Below, in pieces: positions 796 through 28,606 of a stretch of 64,000 nt of DNA (its first letter is position 1; each line of letters opens with the position of its first letter). The notes below the pieces were generated by a model, which worked only from the letters and a program-made list of their open reading frames with translations, searched no databases and was not told the origin of the DNA. The translations under genes were made by a program, and so were the position numbers. This DNA is from a virus (Duplodnaviria > Caudoviricetes): positions 9,446 to 73,445 of the IMG/VR virus record IMGVR_UViG_3300037310_000131. One strand, given 5' to 3'.

Positions 796-870
796 GCCTC
801 AGTGATGTAGGAGTAAACATACGTCGTTGCCAACGATGATACCAGAGTGCGAATCTCTGCTGGGGCACCA
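796..870 (+). tRNA. tRNA-Gly(GCC)
   Basis: Cloverleaf; loop TT-GCC-AA; T-loop TGCGAAT; CCA. Confidence 0.9.
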
Positions 871-875
871 ATTTC

Positions 876-950
876 GGGTCGCAAGCATTTCAAGCGATGC
901 GCTAGGCTTTTACCCTTGAGAACTCGGGGCAGTACCGAGGCGACCCACCA
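876..950 (+). tRNA. tRNA-Lys(TTT)
   Basis: Acceptor GGGTCGC/GCGACCC; loop CT-TTT-AC; T-loop GGCAGTA; CCA. Confidence 0.88.
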
Positions 951-956
951 ATTTAT

Positions 957-1031
957 CGCGACTGACCAAGCAAGCGCATGGGCCTGCCCGCAAAGCAGTG
1001 AAGCCGGGAGCGTTACCCGGAGTCGCGTCCA
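957..1031 (+). tRNA. tRNA-Cys(GCA)
   Basis: Acceptor CGCGACT/AGTCGCG; U73; loop CC-GCA-AA; CCA. Confidence 0.85.
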
Positions 1032-1069
1032 CTTAGTTGCCAGTTTGGTATTCAACTGCAACCTTCACC

Positions 1070-1142
1070 TGGGGAGAGGCGCAGGCTCGAATCCTGCACT
1101 GGGGTAAAATCTCAGTTCGTATAGCGGATAGTATACTCCCTG
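1070..1142 (+). ncRNA. Circularly permuted tRNA-like element
   Basis: Order is T-arm (GCAGG-CTCGAAT-CCTGC), loop-closed acceptor (ACTGGGGT-AAA-ATCTCAGT), D-arm (GTAT/ATAC); TGGGG pairs with CCCTG. Confidence 0.65.
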
Positions 1143-1257
1143 CTCCAGCTATAGGCGACACAATGCCACTCAGTCTTGTAAGAAAAGCGCAGCAGTTTTT
1201 CTTACATGGTGCTCACGAAAGTTGTGCGACAGCCGGGAGAGACCGACACCTGAACAT

Positions 1258-1334
1258 GGGCCAAAAGCATTGTTGGTAATGCGCCTCCTTTGCACGGAGA
1301 ATGCTGGCGGGTTCGACTCCCCCTTGGTCCACCA
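1258..1334 (+). tRNA. tRNA-Ala(TGC)
   Basis: G3:U70; loop TT-TGC-AC; T-loop TTCGACT; CCA. Confidence 0.9.
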
Positions 1335-1339
1335 ATTTC

Positions 1340-1415
1340 GTGCGCGTGGCTCATATAGCTGAGCACCATCCTTCCAAGCTGGCCCAAGCAGGTGCAAGTC
1401 CTGTCGCGCACTCCA
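1340..1415 (+). tRNA. tRNA-Gly(TCC)
   Basis: Acceptor GTGCGCG/CGCGCAC; loop CT-TCC-AA; CCA. Confidence 0.88.
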
Positions 1416-1418
1416 TTT

Positions 1419-1478
1419 GGTCCTGCGGGCACTGCCGCCCGCTCCCCTCGGGGGCACCTGAAAGAACAGGTCTGGACC
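1419..1478 (+). ncRNA. 60-nt four-way-junction RNA of unknown family
   Basis: Stems GGTCC/GGACC, GCGGGC/GCCCGC, CCCC/GGGG and CCTG/CAGG. Confidence 0.45.
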
Positions 1479-1486
1479 CCCTTTTT

Positions 1487-1573
1487 CCAGTCGTGCCAGA
1501 GCAGCAATTGGAGTGCGCTGTAAACGCATTGCCCCAGCGGGCTACATAGGTGCAAGTCCTTTCGACTGGACCA
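1487..1573 (+). tRNA. tRNA-Tyr(GTA) with C1:G72
   Basis: Acceptor CCAGTCG/CGACTGG; loop CT-GTA-AA; long variable arm; CCA. Confidence 0.88.
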
Positions 1574-1579
1574 CTTCAT

Positions 1580-1656
1580 TGTCTCGTAGCTCAGATAGTC
1601 AGAGCGCCCGCTTGATAAGCGGTAGGTCGTCGGTGCGAAACCGACCGGGACAACCA
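1580..1656 (+). tRNA. tRNA-Ile(GAT)
   Basis: Loop TT-GAT-AA; acceptor TGTCTCG/CGGGACA; CCA. Confidence 0.9.
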
Positions 1657-1657
1657 T

Positions 1658-1975
1658 TTACACCACGACAATTCCTTCACGGATTTCGTGATGGCAGTTC
1701 GAGCAAACCAAAACACGCTTCTTGGCTTCTTCTAAAAGAGCCTCAAAGTTCTGGCCATGACCCTTGGTAGGGATGCCAAGTGACCTTTGTTGTGGGTCGC
1801 GGTGGTGAAAGTGAAGTGCAGATATGCAGGTTTTGTAGCCACAAGCACTGCGCTCGCCGCCAAATAGAGCAACAAGCCGTTGCTTGTTCTTGAGCCTGTT
1901 TACCTTGATATGTGCGTAGTTCCCTGTGCGTTTCTTTGAACCACCGGGAGCGGTAATAACTTTTGAAATAGACAT
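1658..1975 (-). CDS. HNH endonuclease (homing-like) inside the tRNA array
   Basis: ACGY...ALHFHHRDP...LVCSNCHHEI; two expected Cys appear substituted. Confidence 0.75.
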   Translation of the reverse strand: MSISKVITAPGGSKKRTGNYAHIKVNRLKNKQRLVALFGGERSACGYKTCISALHFHHRDPQQRSLGIPTKGHGQNFEALLEEAKKRVLVCSNCHHEIREGIVVV

Positions 1976-2010
1976 AGCTAATCAAATGACGATTAGCATG
2001 GTCTGTCGAT

Positions 2011-2082
2011 AGGGCCGTGGCGAAGTCGCCAAGCAGAACTCCAAATCCTGTTATGGGAGCGCAATACTCTCCGGCTCTGCCA
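2011..2082 (+). tRNA. tRNA-Trp(CCA), reduced D-arm
   Basis: Acceptor AGGGCCG/CGGCTCT; loop CT-CCA-AA; CCA. Confidence 0.8.
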
Positions 2083-2088
2083 ATTTAT

Positions 2089-2199
2089 GTTAGAGATAGC
2101 AGTCACAGCGTACGTCGCGTTCTGGATGATCCTTCTTCCGGCGCGGCGTAAGAACTAGCAAATCAACAGGGCGAGCGGCCCACTCCGCCGCCCTTTAAC
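2089..2199 (+). ncRNA. Structured RNA of unknown family
   Basis: Closing stem GTTAGAG/CTTTAAC, long hairpin TACGTCGCG/CGCGGCGTA and hairpin GGGCG/CGCCC. Confidence 0.45.
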
Positions 2200-2204
2200 T
2201 TTCT

Positions 2205-2279
2205 GGGCGTGTAGCTGAGATAGATTAGCGCGTGTCTGAAGAACACGAGACGCTGGAGCGTTACCAGCCTAGCCCACCA
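2205..2279 (+). tRNA. tRNA-Phe(GAA)
   Basis: Loop CT-GAA-GA; two acceptor mismatches; CCA. Confidence 0.8.
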
Positions 2280-2284
2280 CTTTA

Positions 2285-2356
2285 TGCCGGGAGCTTCGGA
2301 AGCCGGCAAGGCTCATACCCTTGTCGAAGCACGTTCGACCCGTGCCCCAGCACCCA
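2285..2356 (+). tRNA. tRNA with CAT anticodon (Met or Ile2), tiny D-loop
   Basis: CAAGG-CT-CAT-AC-CCTTG; T-arm GCACG-TTCGACC-CGTGC; CCA. Confidence 0.7.
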
Positions 2357-2425
2357 TTTGGGCCAACGCAGTGAAAAGTACCGAAATGCCAAAGTAGCGA
2401 AAATCGAGTCGTTGTGCCCATTTAT

Positions 2426-2501
2426 CCATCCGAAGTGTTATCTGGTTGCACGTTCCGTTTGGGGCGGAATTGTCTCGGTTCAAATCCGGGCGGGTGGACC
2501 A
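2426..2501 (+). tRNA. tRNA-Pro(TGG)
   Basis: TTCCG-TT-TGG-GG-CGGAA; CCA. Confidence 0.88.
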
Positions 2502-2507
2502 CTTTAT

Positions 2508-2582
2508 GGGGCTATGGAGTAGTGGTAACTACAGCGCACTGTCCATGCGCAGTCCGGGGTTCGATTCCCCGTAGCCTCGCCA
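2508..2582 (+). tRNA. tRNA-Asp(GTC)
   Basis: GCGCA-CT-GTC-CA-TGCGC; G73; CCA. Confidence 0.9.
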
Positions 2583-2587
2583 TTTAT

Positions 2588-2663
2588 GCGCGATTAGAAT
2601 AGCGGCTAATTCGACAGTCCTACACACTGTTCATCGGGGGTTCGAGTCCCTCATTGCGCACCA
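2588..2663 (+). tRNA. tRNA-Val(TAC)
   Basis: ACAGT-CC-TAC-AC-ACTGT; CCA. Confidence 0.88.
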
Positions 2664-2688
2664 CTTTATTGTTGACTGCGTATATCTG

Positions 2689-2862
2689 GTGTGTACTGAA
2701 ACATGGATTAGTTGCCATATAGATAAAACCTTGCACAAGAACGGACAATGCCGGGCAACACATGGCAAAATAAGGTGTTATCAAAACGGATGCAGGTGCG
2801 AAAGGTGTCGCGCAGCAAACGCAGAGCGTTCTAGAATTTATAGAGCAAAGTCTTTATTGTAG
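2689..2862 (+). pseudogene. C-terminal remnant of an HNH-type endonuclease
   Basis: Frame reads VCTETWISCHIDKT...THGKIRCYQNGCRCERCRAAN, resembling the CxxCH-KT and HG-GCRC tail of phage HNH proteins; N-terminus absent. Confidence 0.5.
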
Positions 2863-2933
2863 AGAAGGCAAATGGCTAGCCGGTTGTCTGTTAAACAACG
2901 TCGTTGATAGTTCGATTCTATCCTCTACAGCCA
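2858..2933 (+). tRNA. tRNA-Asn(GTT)
   Basis: GTTGT-CT-GTT-AA-ACAAC; G73; CCA. Confidence 0.9.
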
Positions 2934-2937
2934 CTTC

Positions 2938-3012
2938 GGGTCGGTAGCTCAGCGGTAGAGCGTTCGATTGTTAATCGAATGGTCATTGGTTCAATCCCAA
3001 TCCGTCCCTCCA
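2938..3012 (+). tRNA. tRNA-Asn(GTT), second copy
   Basis: TTCGA-TT-GTT-AA-TCGAA; U73; CCA. Confidence 0.85.
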
Positions 3013-3013
3013 G

Positions 3014-3089
3014 CCCCGCTTAGCTCAGCAGTTAGAGCGTCTGCCTGACATGCAGAAGGCGGCTGGCGCGACACCAGCAGCGGGGACCA
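3014..3089 (+). tRNA. tRNA-Val(GAC)
   Basis: TCTGC-CT-GAC-AT-GCAGA; CCA. Confidence 0.9.
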
Positions 3090-3090
3090 T

Positions 3091-3166
3091 CGGAGCCTAG
3101 CCTAGCGGTTGAGGCACTTGTTTCGGGAACAAGACGAGGCGAGTTCGACTCTCGCGGCTCCGACCA
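3091..3166 (+). tRNA. tRNA-Pro(CGG)
   Basis: CTTGT-TT-CGG-GA-ACAAG; CCA. Confidence 0.92.
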
Positions 3167-3172
3167 TTTTAT

Positions 3173-3248
3173 GGACCATTGGTGTAGCGGCACTGCACGT
3201 CGAGCTTTGAACTCGAAGGTCTTGGGTCAGCACCAAGATGGTCTGCCA
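3173..3248 (+). tRNA. tRNA-Gln(TTG)
   Basis: TCGAG-CT-TTG-AA-CTCGA; CCA. Confidence 0.88.
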
Positions 3249-3253
3249 ATTTC

Positions 3254-3327
3254 CGCCCTCTGGTGTAGTAGTAGCACCACGGATTCTGAACCCGTTAGTC
3301 TTGGAGCGTAACCAAGGGGGGCGGCCA
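3254..3327 (+). tRNA. tRNA-Gln(CTG)
   Basis: ACGGA-TT-CTG-AA-CCCGT; CCA. Confidence 0.87.
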
Positions 3328-3390
3328 TTTTAGTCTCGCGTACCATGAGTACAAGGAGCAACGGCCCCGTATTTTTGCGCGGCCAGCCAA

Positions 3391-3610
3391 TTTCCAGCAG
3401 GAGCGCATTCGCTGTTCGCAAATTGCGAATGGAGGAAGTTCGCGTCTGCGCAACACACCGAGGCAGGGCTTGTTCTTTGGTTCAAGTCCGCTATGACCTC
3501 ATGGTAGCAGCAACCCAAACAGACTGAGGATGAGTGTTGTCCTGCGATGTCGGGTTGGGGCTTAGACAAATGAATGCGGTCAACAGAAACGCGGCTACGT
3601 CCACTGGAAA
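3391..3610 (+). ncRNA. rnpB: Minimal RNase P RNA (catalytic domain with vestigial S-domain)
   Basis: CR-I GAGGAAGTTCGCGT and CR-V ACAGAAACGCGGCT form P4; P1, P2, P3, P5, P6, P15-P17, the L15 GGT and CR-IV TAGACAAATG can all be drawn. Confidence 0.85.
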
Positions 3611-3617
3611 AATTTTT

Positions 3618-3692
3618 GGAAGCGAAGCCACAGTAGACGGGCACCCGGCTCTTACCCGGATTTCGTGAGGCTGCGACTGCCTCCGCTTCCAC
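3618..3692 (+). tRNA. tRNA-Lys(CTT)
   Basis: Acceptor GGAAGCG/CGCTTCC; loop CT-CTT-AC; CCA. Confidence 0.87.
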
Positions 3693-3696
3693 CACC

Positions 3697-3753
3697 TTCC
3701 AGTCAAGATGCCGTAAACTCACAGTGTGTGTTCGGGACCTTCATCTTGGCTGG
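3697..3753 (+). ncRNA. Long hairpin RNA of unknown family
   Basis: 12-bp stem CCAGTCAAGATG/CATCTTGGCTGG with inner pairing. Confidence 0.4.
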
Positions 3754-3760
3754 GTTCTTT

Positions 3761-3832
3761 GGCCGGTGATTCAGCAATCCACAGGGTTTCATAAGCCCAG
3801 TGAATCGGGGGCAGCACCCGGACCAGCCACCA
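3761..3832 (+). tRNA. tRNA with CAT anticodon (Met or Ile2), short D-arm
   Basis: AGGGT-TT-CAT-AA-GCCCA; T-loop GGCAGCA; CCA. Confidence 0.72.
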
Positions 3833-3836
3833 ATTT

Positions 3837-3912
3837 GCCTGTGAAGTTCATATAGCTGAACGTGTCCTTGGTAAGGACAATGCAGCGGGTGCAAGTCCCG
3901 CCTCAGGCTCCA
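3837..3912 (+). tRNA. tRNA-Thr(GGT)
   Basis: TGTCC-TT-GGT-AA-GGACA; CCA. Confidence 0.9.
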
Positions 3913-3913
3913 T

Positions 3914-3996
3914 GGGCGCGTGGTTAACTACGAATAGCAGAGTATTCTGCCTTAGAAGCAGACAGCCTTGGGGGTGCAAGTCCCTCCGCGCCTACC
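3914..3996 (+). tRNA. tRNA-Leu(TAG)
   Basis: TCTGC-CT-TAG-AA-GCAGA; A73; CCA. Confidence 0.82.
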
Positions 3997-4004
3997 AATT
4001 TCAT

Positions 4005-4079
4005 GGCCCAATCGACAACCAGCTAAGTCACTGCGCTTTCAACGCGGAGTACCGGGGGCAGCACCCGGTTGGGCTACCA
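4005..4079 (+). tRNA. tRNA-Glu(TTC)
   Basis: CTGCG-CT-TTC-AA-CGCGG; CCA. Confidence 0.87.
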
Positions 4080-4085
4080 CTTCAT

Positions 4086-4160
4086 GGCCGCATCGTATAG
4101 AAGTCAGTACGCTGCCCTCTCAAGGCAGGAACCCCGGAGCGTTACCGGGTGCGGCTACCA
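4086..4160 (+). tRNA. tRNA-Glu(CTC)
   Basis: CTGCC-CT-CTC-AA-GGCAG; CCA. Confidence 0.88.
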
Positions 4161-4163
4161 TTT

Positions 4164-4248
4164 CGCCAACTGGATGGAATAGCAGACACGGGGCACTCAA
4201 AACGCCCTGCCGAAAGGCGTCCCGGTGCAAGTCCGGGGTTGGCGACCA
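4164..4248 (+). tRNA. tRNA-Leu(CAA)
   Basis: Loop CT-CAA-AA; long variable arm; CCA. Confidence 0.87.
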
Positions 4249-4249
4249 C

Positions 4250-4342
4250 GGTCCCGTGGTGTAATGTTAGCACCGCTAGTTTTATAAACTGGGCGCACTA
4301 GATTGGTGCCGTGTGCTGGTTCAAGTCCAGCCGGGACTACCA
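4250..4342 (+). tRNA. tRNA with TAT anticodon (Ile-AUA) and long variable arm
   Basis: CTAGT-TT-TAT-AA-ACTGG; variable hairpin GCACTA/TGGTGC; acceptor GGTCCCG/CGGGACT; A73; CCA. Confidence 0.8.
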
Positions 4343-4346
4343 CTTT

Positions 4347-4421
4347 GGTCTGTAAGTGTTGAGAGATACACGCGGCTTTCGTAAAGCTGAATACTCGGAG
4401 CGTTACCGAGACGGACCTCCA
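4347..4421 (+). tRNA. tRNA-Thr(CGT)
   Basis: CGGCT-TT-CGT-AA-AGCTG; CCA. Confidence 0.88.
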
Positions 4422-4425
4422 TTTT

Positions 4426-4501
4426 GTTCTGCAAGCATTGCTGGCGATGCGGCTGCCTTGTAAGCAGCAGATAGTCGGTTCGATTCCGGCGCGGAACTCC
4501 A
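4426..4501 (+). tRNA. tRNA-Thr(TGT)
   Basis: GCTGC-CT-TGT-AA-GCAGC; CCA. Confidence 0.9.
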
Positions 4502-4502
4502 T

Positions 4503-4580
4503 CAGGAGCAGTAGTGTAACCGGCAAACACAGGAGCCTGTGAAGCTCCGGTAGAGAGTTCGAGCCTCTCCCTCCTGACCA
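4503..4580 (+). tRNA. tRNA-His(GTG), atypical acceptor
   Basis: GGAGC-CT-GTG-AA-GCTCC; A73, no genomic G-1, 2-nt bulge in the acceptor; CCA. Confidence 0.75.
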
Positions 4581-4584
4581 CTTT

Positions 4585-4660
4585 GCAAGACTCGGCAATG
4601 GATAGTCAGTCTCCCCGCGAAGGAGGTTTAGTCCCAGTTCAAGTCTGGGGTCTTGCGCCA
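4585..4660 (+). tRNA. tRNA-Arg(GCG)
   Basis: TCTCC-CC-GCG-AA-GGAGG; CCA. Confidence 0.83.
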
Positions 4661-4754
4661 TTTGCTTGACACAGATACCGATATTACAAATGCCGTTGCG
4701 AACTGTGTAGAAAAGCGTCTACAGAGGCGTCAAGGAAATGGAGACAATCACTTT

Positions 4755-4830
4755 GTCGCGTTCAGCCAAGCAGACAGGCGCTGGTCTTCTAAGCCAAGCA
4801 ATGCGGGTGCAACTCCTGCACGCGGCACCA
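4755..4830 (+). tRNA. tRNA-Arg(TCT)
   Basis: Loop CT-TCT-AA; acceptor GTCGCGT/ACGCGGC; CCA. Confidence 0.86.
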
Positions 4831-4833
4831 TTT

Positions 4834-4908
4834 GCTCCATTCGTCCAATGTATAGGGCCTGCGTCTTCGGAACGCATGATGAGGGTTAGATTCCTTCATG
4901 GAGCGCCA
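4834..4908 (+). tRNA. tRNA-Arg(TCG)
   Basis: TGCGT-CT-TCG-GA-ACGCA; T-loop TTAGATT; CCA. Confidence 0.87.
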
Positions 4909-4909
4909 C

Positions 4910-4985
4910 TTTCTCGTAGCCTAAGGGATAGGCCCCGGTTTCCTAAACCGTGCGCATGCAGGTTCGAGTCCTGTCGAGAAAGCCA
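4910..4985 (+). tRNA. tRNA-Arg(CCT)
   Basis: CCGGT-TT-CCT-AA-ACCGT; CCA. Confidence 0.88.
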
Positions 4986-4989
4986 CTTC

Positions 4990-5057
4990 GGGCCAAATAC
5001 AGATTCGATTGGTCCTTCGGGCCCAAGACGCGGGGGCGGTGCCCGCTTGGTCCACCA
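4990..5057 (+). ncRNA. ssrA: Mini-tmRNA (tRNA-like domain only)
   Basis: Acceptor GGGCCAA/TTGGTCC with G3:U70, A73 and CCA; stemless D-loop ending GATTCGA; GAC-GCGGG...CCCGC T-arm; P2 capped by cUUCGg. Confidence 0.8.
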
Positions 5058-5061
5058 CTTT

Positions 5062-5147
5062 GGAGACGCAATCCAGCAGGGCTGGAACGGGCCTTGAAAA
5101 CCCAGTGACGCGCAAGCGTTGGGATTCGACTTCTCGCGTCTCCGCCA
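5062..5147 (+). tRNA. tRNA-Ser(TGA)
   Basis: Loop CT-TGA-AA; long variable arm; G73; CCA. Confidence 0.85.
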
Positions 5148-5148
5148 C

Positions 5149-5236
5149 GGAGGGTGAACTGCTCAGGGAGCAGGGCGCTCTGGAAAGGCGTACGCCCGGT
5201 CAACCGGGTGGGTTTCGATTACTCCTCCCTCCGCCA
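5149..5236 (+). tRNA. tRNA-Ser(GGA)
   Basis: Loop CT-GGA-AA; long variable arm; CCA. Confidence 0.87.
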
Positions 5237-5240
5237 CTTT

Positions 5241-5326
5241 GGAAGCAACTGAGGGCAGTTCCTCAACCGGCCTCGAAACCCGGAGTGCCCGCAAGGGCAA
5301 TGGCGCAACTCCATTTGCTTCCGCCA
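5241..5326 (+). tRNA. tRNA-Ser(CGA)
   Basis: Loop CT-CGA-AA; long variable arm; CCA. Confidence 0.85.
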
Positions 5327-5327
5327 T

Positions 5328-5418
5328 GGTGAGTTAAGCAGCCGAGGCGCTGCCGGGGTTTGCTAAACCCTTGGACCGGCTAGCCCCGGTTGTGTGGCAG
5401 GAACACAACTCACCGCCA
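5328..5418 (+). tRNA. tRNA-Ser(GCT)
   Basis: GGGGT-TT-GCT-AA-ACCCT; long variable arm; CCA. Confidence 0.87.
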
Positions 5419-5476
5419 CTTTGTTCTTGCAATCGCCGCCGGGCGGGTACAAGGATGTCAACGAAACGCAACTAAG

Positions 5477-6112
5477 ATGAGCATCGCAAACATACTGAAC
5501 AGGCCCGTGCTTGTTCTGAATGCCAACTGGCAGGCCATCAGCGCCGCGAAGTCGGTCAAGCGCGCAATCGAGGACATGACAAGCGGAAGGCCCGAAGACG
5601 GATGGCTACCGCCTTTTCGCGGCATGGATGTCGAGCTAAACGCAGACGGCACCCTGTTCTACGCCAACCCGGTTGACTGGGACGAATGGGTGCGCCTTCC
5701 TGTGCGCCCCGGCATAGACGAGTTCGTTTCCACGGCGTTCCTCAAGATTCGCGCTCCCCGCGTCATCATATCGCGCAACTACAACAAGTCGCGCGTGCGC
5801 GTGGTTGCGCTTTCCAAGGGGGCCATCAAGCGTCGCGACGGGGGCCAGTGCCAGTACTGCCACAGGTTCTTCCCGATGGACGAGCTGAACATTGACCACG
5901 TGATTCCGCAGCACCATGGCGGCGAGGACACGTGGGAAAACATGGTTTGCTCTTGCATTACTTGCAATTCGCGGAAGGGTCACAAGTTCAACCACGAGAT
6001 TGGATACAAGCTGCTCAAGGAGCCGTCCAGTCCCGCGCCGGTTGCGGAAACAGCCATCTACATTGAAATCAAACACCCAACATGGACACCATTCCTCAAC
6101 CACCTGAAATGA
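5477..6112 (+). CDS. HNH endonuclease (McrA/HNH_5-like)
   Basis: VLVLNANW N-terminus; RDGGQCQYC...NIDHVIP..HGG..TWENMVCSCITCNSRKG. Confidence 0.87.
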   Translation: MSIANILNRPVLVLNANWQAISAAKSVKRAIEDMTSGRPEDGWLPPFRGMDVELNADGTLFYANPVDWDEWVRLPVRPGIDEFVSTAFLKIRAPRVIISRNYNKSRVRVVALSKGAIKRRDGGQCQYCHRFFPMDELNIDHVIPQHHGGEDTWENMVCSCITCNSRKGHKFNHEIGYKLLKEPSSPAPVAETAIYIEIKHPTWTPFLNHLK

Positions 6113-6501
6113 GCGAGAACATCGGAGAGGAGTCCATTCGCAAAATGCACGAGTGGATGAGGCTCCAGCGCGGCGAGCGCAACACCAACTTCTACCTCAC
6201 GTCCGCCATACTCTACCTGTGCGGCAGGGTTGAGGAGCTCGAGCGGAAGCTGGTAGAGCGCTCCCGCGCTTTCCAGCCGCCCGCTCCGCAGGATGTCGAG
6301 GAATATGCAAAGACCATCAACTTCACGGTTGACGGCGAGGCGTTTTGCTCATTCTATGAAGCTCGCGGGTGGATGATGGGCAAGGCCAAGATGAAGTCTT
6401 GGAAGGCCGCAGTCCGCACGTGGAAGCAGCGCCGCATGCCAGAGCAGAAGAAGGCCGGCCGCCTGCCAGACAATCTCTCCAACCTACATGACATCCCATA
6501 A
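6109..6501 (+). CDS. Phage replication initiator/replisome organizer-like protein
   Basis: FQPP..DVEEY...FCSFYEARGW..MKSWKAAVRTW motif; directly upstream of DnaB. Confidence 0.6.
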   Translation: MSENIGEESIRKMHEWMRLQRGERNTNFYLTSAILYLCGRVEELERKLVERSRAFQPPAPQDVEEYAKTINFTVDGEAFCSFYEARGWMMGKAKMKSWKAAVRTWKQRRMPEQKKAGRLPDNLSNLHDIP

Positions 6502-7861
6502 CAACGACCGCTCGCCGCCCCACAACGCAGAGGCAGAGGAGCACGTGATTGCGTGTTGCCTTCTGGACAGCGGGGAAACCATGACTCGCGCCATCTGCCA
6601 TGGCGTTCGCGAGGAAACCTTCTACTTGCCGCAGAACCGCGTCATCTGGCGCGCGATGCTGGGCCTTTTCACGCAGAAGAACACGGTCACGCTTGAGATG
6701 CTTATCGCAGAGCTCACCGTGCGCCGCCAGATAGATGAGGTTGGCGGCTTTCCATACCTCATGCAGGTAACCGGCAGGGTGCCAACCACGGTGCATGCTG
6801 GATACTTCATCGAGAAGGTGATTCAGATGCGCGCCCTCCGCGAGGCAATTCGCATCGGTACCTCCATTGTGGAGTCGTCGTACGGCTATGCCGGCGAGAG
6901 CATGGCGGAGCACCTAGCGCCATGGCTGGATGAGCTGTCCAAGGTGCAGAACGGCCTTACGGTGCGCGACGAGAAGACGCTGCAGGACGCCGCCGCCGAC
7001 ACCATCGAGATTGTCCGCAAGATGGCGTCTGGCGAGAACGTCGAGCCGGGCTTGGTGTCGTGGGGCTTCGCAGACCTAGACCGCATCTTCTACCCAATGA
7101 CACCGGGGGAGCTGGTCATCGTGGCCGCTCGGCCGAGCGTCGGCAAGACCACCTTCGCCGACCAGATTGCCATTGCCAACGCGTTTCGCGACAGTCGCCA
7201 CGTCGGAATCTTCAGCCTTGAGGTCACGGTTGAGCAGAAGCCGAGGAAGTTTGCCCAGATTATGTCGGGGCACTCGTGGCGTCGCCTGCCCAAGTTGCAC
7301 GAGAAGGACCGCATTGAGTTCATTCAGGCTCTGGATGATCTCAAGAAGAACAAGTACCTTCACTGCTTCTACCGCGAGCAGTCGATCGATGGCATTTGCG
7401 CGCGCATCCGGGCCCTCAACCAGCAGGGCAAGTTGCAGCTGGCCATCGTGGACTATCTGCAGCTTCTGGAGGTCGGCGGAAAGGCAACGTCGCGCAATGA
7501 CTCCATTGGTGACGCAACGCGCAAGCTGAAGCTGTTGGCGCTGGAGCTAAACATACCCATAATCCTCCTCTCTCAGCTCAGCCGAGCAAACGAGCGAGAG
7601 GGCCGTGAGCCGCGTCTGTCTGACTTGCGCGACTCAGGAAACATCGAGCAGGACGCTGACCGCGTGCTGTTGTTGCACCGACCGCAAATCAATCCAATCA
7701 CGAACATGCCTCAGGACACGCACGACGAGTCTGTCGATACTTTTTATACTGACATCATCCAAGCGAAGGGTAGGGATGTCGGCACGTTCAGGATTGGGGT
7801 CTACCTCAAGCGCAGCCGCACAACCTTCGTCCCAATCACAAGAAATGAAGTTCAGGTTTAA
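6488..7861 (+). CDS. dnaB: Replicative DNA helicase
   Basis: PHNAEAE N-terminus, Walker A AARPSVGKTT, IVDYLQL, LSQLSR, LSDLRDSGNIEQDAD. Confidence 0.95.
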   Translation: MTSHNNDRSPPHNAEAEEHVIACCLLDSGETMTRAICHGVREETFYLPQNRVIWRAMLGLFTQKNTVTLEMLIAELTVRRQIDEVGGFPYLMQVTGRVPTTVHAGYFIEKVIQMRALREAIRIGTSIVESSYGYAGESMAEHLAPWLDELSKVQNGLTVRDEKTLQDAAADTIEIVRKMASGENVEPGLVSWGFADLDRIFYPMTPGELVIVAARPSVGKTTFADQIAIANAFRDSRHVGIFSLEVTVEQKPRKFAQIMSGHSWRRLPKLHEKDRIEFIQALDDLKKNKYLHCFYREQSIDGICARIRALNQQGKLQLAIVDYLQLLEVGGKATSRNDSIGDATRKLKLLALELNIPIILLSQLSRANEREGREPRLSDLRDSGNIEQDADRVLLLHRPQINPITNMPQDTHDESVDTFYTDIIQAKGRDVGTFRIGVYLKRSRTTFVPITRNEVQV

Positions 7862-28262: not shown

Positions 28263-28606
28263 TGGCCACACCGTTCAAGTCACTGGCAGCTGCGCTGCCG
28301 CGCGCGGCTGAACTTGAATATGTTCCTCCGCTGGTGAACCCATTGACGGTCAGCGCGGGTCCAAACCAGACTGTCAGTGGAGCTCTGGACGGCATCTTGG
28401 TCGGGGCCGTGTCCAGTTATTCAACGGCCGCCGTCACGGTTGAGTGGACGCTGGTCAGCGGCCCGGGTTCGGCCACGTTCGGCACGCCAACTGCAACGTC
28501 CACAACTGTGACCGTGTCGGAAGCGGGTGCCTATGTGTTCAAGCTGACGGCCACGCAGGGCGACTGGAGCATTGATGACGAGTCGTCCGTACTATTTACA
28601 GCCTAA
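28262..28606 (+). CDS. PKD/Ig-like domain virion protein, copy 1
   Basis: VSAGPNQT...WTLVSGPGSATF...GAYVFKLTAT. Confidence 0.7.
   Translation: MATPFKSLAAALPRAAELEYVPPLVNPLTVSAGPNQTVSGALDGILVGAVSSYSTAAVTVEWTLVSGPGSATFGTPTATSTTVTVSEAGAYVFKLTATQGDWSIDDESSVLFTA

Follow-up and report, generated by a model that had tools for sequence, protein, structure and literature searches.

The RNA encoded at positions 4990-5057 is most probably a tag-less tmRNA that consists of the tRNA-like domain (TLD) only and belongs to the kind published for mycobacteriophage DS6A. The probability that the gene is real and of this kind, and that its product interferes with trans-translation in the host, is estimated jointly at about 0.8. 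The window, which is the whole 64,000-nt stretch of DNA that was analysed, lies at 9446-73445 in an IMG/VR virus record of 73.4 kb that is estimated to be 81% complete and has a G+C content of approximately 60%.

The first-pass annotation described this RNA (hereafter the mini-tmRNA) as a 68-nt tRNA-like domain with neither tag ORF nor pseudoknots, and every element that it listed was found where it had been placed, including the cUUCGg cap at 5015-5020, whose position was the same when the sequence was read again. The features are those of a TLD, namely a 7-bp acceptor stem with G3.U70, A73 and CCA, no D stem, the UUCGA motif, GAC, a T arm and helix P2 (Table 1). Positions inside the mini-tmRNA are counted as the coordinate minus 4989, which places the acceptor stem at 1-7/58-64, the D-loop at 8-19, P2 at 20-26/31-37, UUCG at 27-30, GAC at 38-40, the T arm at 41-57, A65 at position 73 of the tRNA numbering, and CCA at 66-68. 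P2 occupies the place of the anticodon arm and the entire mRNA-like domain, and its 4-nt loop leaves no space for a resume codon, a tag frame, a stop codon or the pseudoknots PK1-PK4. The features of a full-length tmRNA (mRNA-like domain, pseudoknots and Rfam gathering score) are thus missing, and the RNA is not an ordinary tRNA either, having no D stem and a UUCG loop too short for an anticodon. The GAC linker corresponds to the conserved "328-GAC-330" of tmRNA (PMC1168896), whereas the first pair of P2, a conserved C-G in E. coli tmRNA (PMC1168896), is U-A here. The mismatch in P2 is U24.C33, and the minimum free energy fold prefers a P2 register of 5 bp with a 3-nt loop; the fold energy of -25.3 kcal/mol (z = -0.24) is no better than that of shuffled sequences. 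ORFs overlapping 4990-5057 were dismissed as coding sequences because the same ORFs also cover bona fide tRNA genes.

Table 1. Coordinates in the window of the mini-tmRNA, its parts and the array genes discussed in the text
Feature	Position	Strand	Basis or remark
tRNA-Ala(UGC) of the phage	1258..1334	+	first 8 nt and last 13 nt identical to the mini-tmRNA
RNase P-like RNA lacking the specificity domain, inside the same tRNA array	3393-3608		
tRNA-Arg(CCU), upstream neighbour	4910..4985	+	ARAGORN, Rfam; followed by 4-nt spacer CUUC
Mini-tmRNA gene, TLD only, whole; 68 nt (65 nt + encoded CCA)	4990..5057	+	sequence; full-length matches of models R1 and R2
Acceptor stem, 5' strand GGGCCAA (G3 of G3.U70)	4990..4996	+	7/7 pairs with 5047-5053
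Stemless D-loop AUACAGAUUCGA, 12 nt, tmRNA-type UUCGA motif at its end	4997..5008	+	no D stem
Helix P2 UUGGUCC/GGCCCAA, 7 bp including one U.C mismatch	5009..5026	+	UUCG tetraloop cap at 5016-5019
GAC linker preceding the T stem, conserved in tmRNA	5027..5029	+	sequence; Rfam tmRNA_permuted alignment
T arm GCGGG-GGCGGUG-CCCGC, 5-bp stem and 7-nt loop	5030..5046	+	sequence
Acceptor stem, 3' strand UUGGUCC (U70), discriminator A73 and CCA	5047..5057	+	sequence
tRNA-Ser(UGA), downstream neighbour	5062..5147	+	ARAGORN at lowered threshold; preceded by 4-nt spacer CUUU

Standard finders pass over this gene. ARAGORN made no call at 4990-5057 (default, -ps95, -ps85 and -ps80) and called no tmRNA elsewhere, whether in the window or within the opening 9.6 kb of the contig. 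Rfam likewise reported nothing at these positions when its gathering scores were applied. When Rfam was used in E-value mode (1-kb search), the sole match was to tmRNA_permuted (RF04321), which covered the 3' half only with 22.9 bits (E 0.019) against a cut-off of 47 bits; RF00023, the tRNA model RF00005 and the mitochondrial tmRNA model RF02544 did not match the mini-tmRNA, the latter two at E <= 10. The check by ARAGORN and cmsearch that had been proposed for the element therefore gave a mixed outcome, negative for ARAGORN, the gathering scores and the mitochondrial model, with the sub-threshold match of the 3' half in its favour. The TLD-only class in general escapes ARAGORN, the Rfam gathering thresholds and routine phage annotation.

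IMG/VR was scanned with two patterns. Scan A (GATTCGA, a gap, GACGCGGG, a loop and CCCGC) returned 16 loci, among which L002, L005 and L011 hold TLDs in standard order whose P2 is short and closed, G3.U70 being unforced by the pattern. Scan B, whose pattern itself fixed U70 and the CCA end, returned 102 stretches; 79 loci were classified, and 16 of them are standard-order minis (12 unique sequences, 77-83 nt) while the other 63 mostly look like the acceptor part of a permuted tmRNA gene. Altogether, 20 further standard-order minis were found in IMG/VR contigs by these scans. The viral contig scan also gave one 3' fragment, L015.

Covariance models built from such sequences recovered the mini-tmRNA over its full length. 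Model R1, based on L011 alone, a mini of an unrelated phage, scored it at 42.3 bits (E 6e-9) and recovered the mini of DS6A too. Model R2 was built from 16 minis of unrelated phages, DS6A included and 4990-5057 excluded, and gave 51.2 bits (E 1.6e-9); its alignment A4 was, like A3, guided by the model and so leans towards the model structure, and a MAFFT alignment of four minis misplaced the acceptor. The best true tRNA of the window reached 21.0 bits with R2 and the tRNA-Ala of the phage 16.7 bits, leaving a gap to the mini-tmRNA of approximately 30 bits or more. In a five-member alignment of minis, 98.9% of the cells are paired and 11 of the 20 pairs show changes on both sides, shuffle and slide controls being far lower; P2 covaries (both-side changes in 6 of 8 pairs), and G1-C72, G2-C71 and G3.U70 are invariant; this alignment, too, was fitted to the model, a procedure that favours the structure. 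Judged from its sequence, the mini-tmRNA is more than a chance resemblance to a TLD.

The gene lies within a long tRNA array, downstream of which are tail-fibre, DnaB and HNH genes. ARAGORN found 24 tRNAs at 796-4985 with default settings and approximately 30 at a lowered threshold, and Rfam added two more; all of these more than 30 tRNAs are on the + strand, and CCA is encoded in nearly all of them. The mini-tmRNA is spaced like an ordinary member of the array, with 4 nt on either side, on the array strand and with CCA encoded. L029, a contig of 3.6 kb from a different JGI assembly, is 99.97% identical, with a 1-nt difference in 3643, and carries an identical mini at 301-368. The earlier claim that the element is not debris holds, in view of this identical copy, the spacers on both sides and the full-length matches to R1 and R2. 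Both strands of the acceptor and both strands of P2 are present in cis, and there is no tmRNA piece elsewhere in the contig, which ruled out one half of a two-piece tmRNA. The phage is a freshwater one; a search of sequencing runs for the sequence listed two freshwater DNA metagenome runs, which may be its source, and no RNA run, and DnaB gives a weak hint that Verrucomicrobiota may be infected.

For many phages ssrA is the integration site, and they contain the 3' part of that gene; pieces of this type do occur in the viral contig scans (L015, and, as acceptor pieces, most of the 63 among 79 scan-B loci that are no standard-order minis). It is nevertheless extremely unlikely that the mini-tmRNA is the remnant of an attachment site or a captured fragment of host ssrA, because the TLD is complete in cis, its two halves pairing with each other in register inside the tRNA array, no tyrosine integrase was found in the contig, and the acceptor strand GGGCCAA is atypical of bacterial tmRNAs and matches the tRNA-Ala of the phage.

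A search of related phages for the same capped domain had also been proposed. Neither 4000-6500 (megablast) nor the 743-aa ORF (tblastn) had a counterpart among 50,697 phage records, and a related-locus search of viral contigs with DnaB gave none. Relatives were reached through a search for homologous proteins and then the contigs encoding them. Six syntenic relatives were obtained in this way (L024/L025, L026, L027, L028, L030 and L031-33, grouped contigs counted once), which have the order tRNA array, HNH, small ORF and DnaB in common, with DnaB 47-70% and structural proteins 57-85% identical. Their arrays retain the order Arg(GCG)-Arg(UCG)-Arg(CCU)-Ser(UGA), and Ser(UGA) directly follows Arg(CCU), at a distance of 4 nt in L024 and L028 and 40 nt in L026. 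The mini is absent from the loci of all six sampled relatives according to blastn-short, our own scanner, R1 and R2, indicating that the phage clade does not need it and that conservation of an orthologue cannot be shown. A pattern scan of metagenome contigs gave two loci, neither of them a mini by R2, and no further copy. The search thus went against the capped domain in the syntenic relatives and in its favour in unrelated phages, where independent minis likewise close P2 with a stable loop, such as GAGA in L011. The mini-tmRNA appears as a 72-nt cassette (68 nt and one spacer) that was either gained here or lost elsewhere, and its presence or absence at one array junction shows it to be a cassette that moves in the manner of a tRNA gene.

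The mini-tmRNA and the phage's tRNA-Ala(UGC) agree completely in acceptor helix, discriminator and CCA, and the 5' strand of the T stem, GCGGG, is common to both. In the relatives, the acceptors of the syntenic tRNA-Ala genes are different (L026, GGGGAGU; L027, GGGGGUG). Chance identity at acceptor pairs 4-7 is unlikely, which points either to exchange of sequence within the genome or to one constraint acting on both alanine acceptors, and whatever charges the tRNA-Ala of the phage should see the same helix on the mini-tmRNA. The same identity (first 8 nt, last 13 nt and T stem), together with the absence of the element from close relatives, is what would be expected of a degenerate duplicate of tRNA-Ala that has lost its D and anticodon arms and persists as a decaying pseudogene or a processing spacer. 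We consider this origin quite unlikely. The interiors of the two genes are unrelated and cannot be aligned (score -4), and that of the mini-tmRNA has UUCGA, GAC and a GG-type T loop; with R2 the tRNA-Ala falls 35 bits below the mini-tmRNA, the Rfam tRNA model does not match the latter even at E <= 10, and a P2 closed by UUCG is not a product of random decay.

The elbow of the mini-tmRNA, with GGC in the T loop and CAGA in the D-loop, was compared with those of the array. T loops with N-G-C are found in 15 array RNAs, 13 of which have no GG in the D-loop (typically AUAG), and T loops with U-C in 16, of which 15 have GG. The swap reported by the first-pass annotation, AG for GG together with a T-loop GGC, is therefore real, as counted by covariation across the array RNAs, and this covariation of D-loop and T loop indicates that the contact is maintained and that selection acts on the RNA to keep an L-shaped fold. 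The annotation had further taken this elbow as a sign that the element co-evolved with the neighbouring tRNAs, and this part is not supported, in view of unrelated phages, of the relatives without a mini, and of the published occurrence of such an elbow in the tmRNAs of Caulobacter and of Reclinomonas mitochondria (PMC1168896). In L011 (UGCAAUU with ACAGAUUCGA) and L106 (GGCGGUA with AAGAUUCGA) the minis are of the G55 type and the neighbouring tRNAs have canonical GG/UUC, and the tmRNAs of Caulobacter phage CcrPW and Erythrobacter phage XM05 are also of the G55 type, yet their neighbouring tRNAs are canonical GG/UUC as well. Conversely, remodelled tRNA elbows occur in relatives that have no mini, in 15 of 29 tRNAs in L024, 12 of 20 in L026, 9 of 15 in L028 and 19 of 27 in L031.

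TLD-only tmRNAs are already known from a phage. "Mycobacterium phage DS6A (TLD only)" is listed in PMC4131195, and the DS6A entry is repeated in PMC11915505, both papers citing Mao et al. 2009; in the tmRNA Website the sequence is tmID 11587 / Phage__Mycobacterium.9. With our own scanner, it was located at 28478-28560 of JN698994, unannotated, between gp33 and gp34. Both RNAs are phage-encoded and in standard order, with a 7-bp acceptor, G3.U70, A73, a stemless D-loop ending in UCGA, a P2 closed by a short loop, and a T arm with a 5-bp stem and a 7-nt loop, and the same models recover both over their full length. They differ in that the DS6A RNA is 80 nt long, with a 5-bp P2 that ends in 20 nt of loop, UUCGAUU as its T loop and GG in the D-loop, whereas the RNA at 4990-5057 is 68 nt long, with a 7-bp P2, a UUCG tetraloop, a GGCGGUG T loop and AG. 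In addition, CCA is not encoded in DS6A (ACUA), where the gene is solitary between protein genes of an actinophage, while it is encoded here, inside a tRNA array.

Further unannotated mini-TLDs were found in IMG/VR contigs, namely L011 (70 nt), L101 (82 nt), L106 (82 nt), L005, L002 and L096, as well as a 77-nt family in 13 contigs; by tblastx, these contigs showed no detectable protein similarity to the phage analysed here. L011, which adjoins a tRNA gene, agrees with the mini-tmRNA at 11 of 12 D-loop positions, in GAC and in the T stem, and has a P2 of 7-8 bp with its GAGA tetraloop. The acceptor of L101 (GGGCCAU/AUGGUCC), which is within a 15-tRNA array, is almost that of the mini-tmRNA, and the T loop of L106 reads GGCGGUA in place of GGCGGUG. 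All of the IMG/VR mini-TLDs are longer than the mini-tmRNA, and none is capped by UUCG. TLD-only phage tmRNAs are evidently common as well as already published, and the mini-tmRNA is a further example, a very compact natural one in a class with one published phage member.

The precedent named in the first-pass annotation was that of tag-less tmRNAs in jakobid and oomycete mitochondria, which is correct; the nearer precedent in DS6A (PMC4131195, PMC11915505) had been overlooked. The mitochondrial RNAs (RF02544) likewise have no tag frame and are reduced to the TLD, but they are organellar and usually permuted, and their model fails to match the mini-tmRNA, as noted above. Their function with SmpB is presumed (PMC11915505). 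The same paper counts nine "Standard, no CDS" sequences in the tmRNA database and mentions reported plastid forms of approximately 65 bp without a CDS.

As to function, interference with host trans-translation is ranked first, as we infer it, and tag-free rescue is a live rival or an additional role. According to the preferred reading, the mini-tmRNA would be co-transcribed with the array tRNAs and cut out like its neighbours by RNase P and 3' processing. Host AlaRS would alanylate it, given G3.U70, A73 and the acceptor helix of the phage tRNA-Ala, and host SmpB, which on a TLD takes up the position where an anticodon arm would otherwise be (PMC4131195), would bind at the D-loop/P2/GAC region. 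The mini-tmRNA would then compete with host tmRNA for SmpB and stalled ribosomes, and SsrA tagging and proteolysis would be reduced during infection. No gene for SmpB, RF-1/ArfB, Pth or a tyrosine integrase was found in the 81%-complete contig, so that, within the available part of the genome, host factors must be used.

Titration of SmpB by the mini-tmRNA is in substance the proposal already made for DS6A. As PMC4131195 and PMC11915505 relate it, citing Mao 2009, a molecule similar to the DS6A TLD inhibited E. coli tmRNA, perhaps by titrating SmpB, and in the account of PMC4131195 the TLD-like molecule was inhibitory whether it was chargeable or not. This published experiment, which used a similar molecule in E. 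coli and not the RNA at 4990-5057, favours, on our reading, titration independent of charging. On the other hand, the alanine identity set is kept in all the minis, which suggests that charging matters and that SmpB sequestration alone is not the whole function. The invariant alanine identity of unrelated minis, as opposed to the covarying P2 and remainder of the acceptor, argues that charging is selected.

These considerations bear on the possible, although less probable, reading that the mini-tmRNA is a tag-free rescuer. Ala-TLD.SmpB.EF-Tu would enter stalled ribosomes and take the nascent chain, and the peptidyl-TLD would be released by Pth drop-off or by ArfB-like hydrolysis, recycling the ribosomes and leaving phage proteins unmarked for proteolysis. 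The phage could benefit from such an activity if mRNAs are cleaved in the course of infection. The alanine identity set would be dispensable for a mere titrator of SmpB, and every mini examined retains G1-C72, G2-C71, G3.U70, A73 and the 3' end, with covariation at acceptor pairs 4-7, although the pattern of scan B prescribed U70 and the CCA end. The acceptor helix identical to that of the phage tRNA-Ala agrees with this role, and in PMC11915505 it is argued that the tmRNAs of mitochondria, despite having no tag, are conserved along with SmpB and continue to assist where mRNAs are incomplete. The rescuer is disfavoured by the inhibition irrespective of charging that PMC4131195 describes for the TLD-like molecule, by the fact that no release mechanism is known that does without a resume codon and a stop codon, and by the lack of Pth and ArfB genes in the contig.

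A variant of tag-free rescue would place the mini-tmRNA in a semi-orthogonal set of phage RNAs, made up of the more than 30 tRNAs, half of them with A18/G55-type elbows, the RNase P-like RNA at 3393-3608 and the mini-tmRNA itself, with its elbow of this type and the acceptor helix of the phage tRNA-Ala, which would be charged and rescue ribosomes stalled on phage messages when RNAs are cut by host or defence nucleases. We regard this variant as unlikely; if it were true, the identity of the two alanine acceptors would mean that both had been adapted to a single pathway of processing and charging.

Co-crystals with SmpB have been obtained with engineered minimal TLDs. A natural minimal TLD with a P2 capped by a tetraloop, such as the mini-tmRNA, would be easy to test. 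It opens no new question, both candidate functions having been posed already for DS6A and for mitochondria.

The T arm of the mini-tmRNA has affinities of another kind. When the 68-mer was compared with GenBank phages by blastn, matches were obtained to the 3' half only, each of them with the acceptor piece of a permuted tmRNA gene, in Mesorhizobium phage Cp1R7A-A1 and in the CcrPW and XM05 phages mentioned above. ARAGORN called two of these three alphaproteobacterial-phage genes as permuted tmRNAs with tags. GAC and the T arm of Cp1R7A-A1 form a 20-mer (GACGCGGGGGCGGUGCCCGC) identical to that of the mini-tmRNA, and those of CcrPW and XM05, with G55-type T loops, are near-identical to it; moreover, the 5' ends of the coding pieces (GGGGGCGAAAUAGGAUCGAC and GGGGCCGAUCAGUUUCGAUUGG) resemble its 5' half and D-loop. 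The genes differ in that the permuted ones are circularly permuted, approximately 400 nt long and tag-encoding (for example, VAANDNHFEARALAA), whereas the mini-tmRNA is in standard order and message-less.

The uridine pair in the T loop of E. coli tmRNA is replaced by GG in Reclinomonas mitochondrial tmRNA, at the first two positions of the loop as in the mini-tmRNA, and the second uridine by G in Caulobacter (PMC1168896). Because the Reclinomonas and Caulobacter tmRNAs have G there, the GGCGGUG T loop can be regarded as a trait of alphaproteobacterial or mitochondrial type. A message-less gene in standard order with a GG T loop also recalls the "re-permuted" gene of Jakoba libera (PMC11915505), and we infer that the mini-tmRNA may likewise descend from a permuted gene.

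About half of the tRNAs in the array of the window carry N-G-C in the T-loop in place of U-U-C, a change that covaries with the absence of GG from the D-loop (13 against 15 clean cases). The same pattern was found in four syntenic relatives of the phage (L024, L026, L028 and L031), and it does not hold in a further relative, L027. The tRNAs with N-G-C T-loops lack U54 and U55, which TrmA and TruB target.

The acceptor of tRNA-Ala(UGC), GGGCCAA/UUGGUCC (C4-G69), is unusual and is identical to that of the mini-tmRNA, and the acceptors of the relatives' syntenic tRNA-Ala genes differ from it. Its T stem, GCGGG/CCCCC, contains one C.C mismatch. Downstream, the mini-tmRNA is followed by three tRNA-Ser-like genes with long variable arms and irregular T arms (for example, GGGA-UUCGACU-UCUC), none of which was called by ARAGORN at default or by Rfam at the gathering score. 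Syntenic copies of the UAU tRNA, also of 93 nt, are present in the relatives L024, L025 and L027.

Features of the window and of other phage loci
Feature	Location	Strand	Basis
tRNA array, mixed elbow types	window 796-5330	+	T-loop / D-loop comparison
tRNA-Ala(UGC)	window 1258-1334	+	
RNase P-like RNA	window 3393-3608	+	Rfam RNaseP_arch match, within tRNA array
tRNA, UAU anticodon, long variable arm, 93 nt	window 4250-4342	+	ARAGORN
tRNA-Ser-like, UGA anticodon, long variable arm	window 5062-5147	+	
tRNA-Ser-like, GGA anticodon, long variable arm	window 5149-5236	+	
tRNA-Ser-like, CGA anticodon, long variable arm	window 5241-5328	+	
DnaB-like helicase gene	window 6488-7861	+	
Mini-tmRNA, 82 nt	L101:4471-4552 (IMGVR_UViG_3300028797_000005)	-	R2
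Permuted tmRNA gene, Erythrobacter phage XM05	L021 about 1441-1700 (PV416404)		seen by eye
Permuted tmRNA gene, Mesorhizobium phage Cp1R7A-A1	L019 (MT188704)		
Permuted tmRNA gene, Caulobacter phage CcrPW	L020 (MH588545)		

The match of the RNase P-like RNA to RNaseP_arch is end to end and scores 35.1 bits (E 1.7e-8; the Rfam gathering score is 84), with the specificity-domain positions mostly deleted.

The mini-tmRNA of the unrelated contig L101, located in a 15-tRNA array, scored 58.1 bits with R2 (the covariance model built from 16 mini-tmRNAs, that of the window left out) and is miscalled 'tRNA-Leu(taa)' by ARAGORN; similar miscalls may hide further mini-tmRNAs in annotated phages. The three permuted tmRNA genes are unannotated in their GenBank records. 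ARAGORN detected the Cp1R7A-A1 and CcrPW genes and gave no call for that of XM05, where the acceptor piece and the start of the coding piece, GGGGCCG, are recognisable by eye.

The closest cellular homologues of the DnaB-like helicase outside the phage clade belong to Verrucomicrobiota (Opitutaceae, Lacunisphaera and Oleiharenicola; approximately 42% identity), and a search of sequencing runs found the window DNA in freshwater metagenomes; both are weak hints to the phage host.
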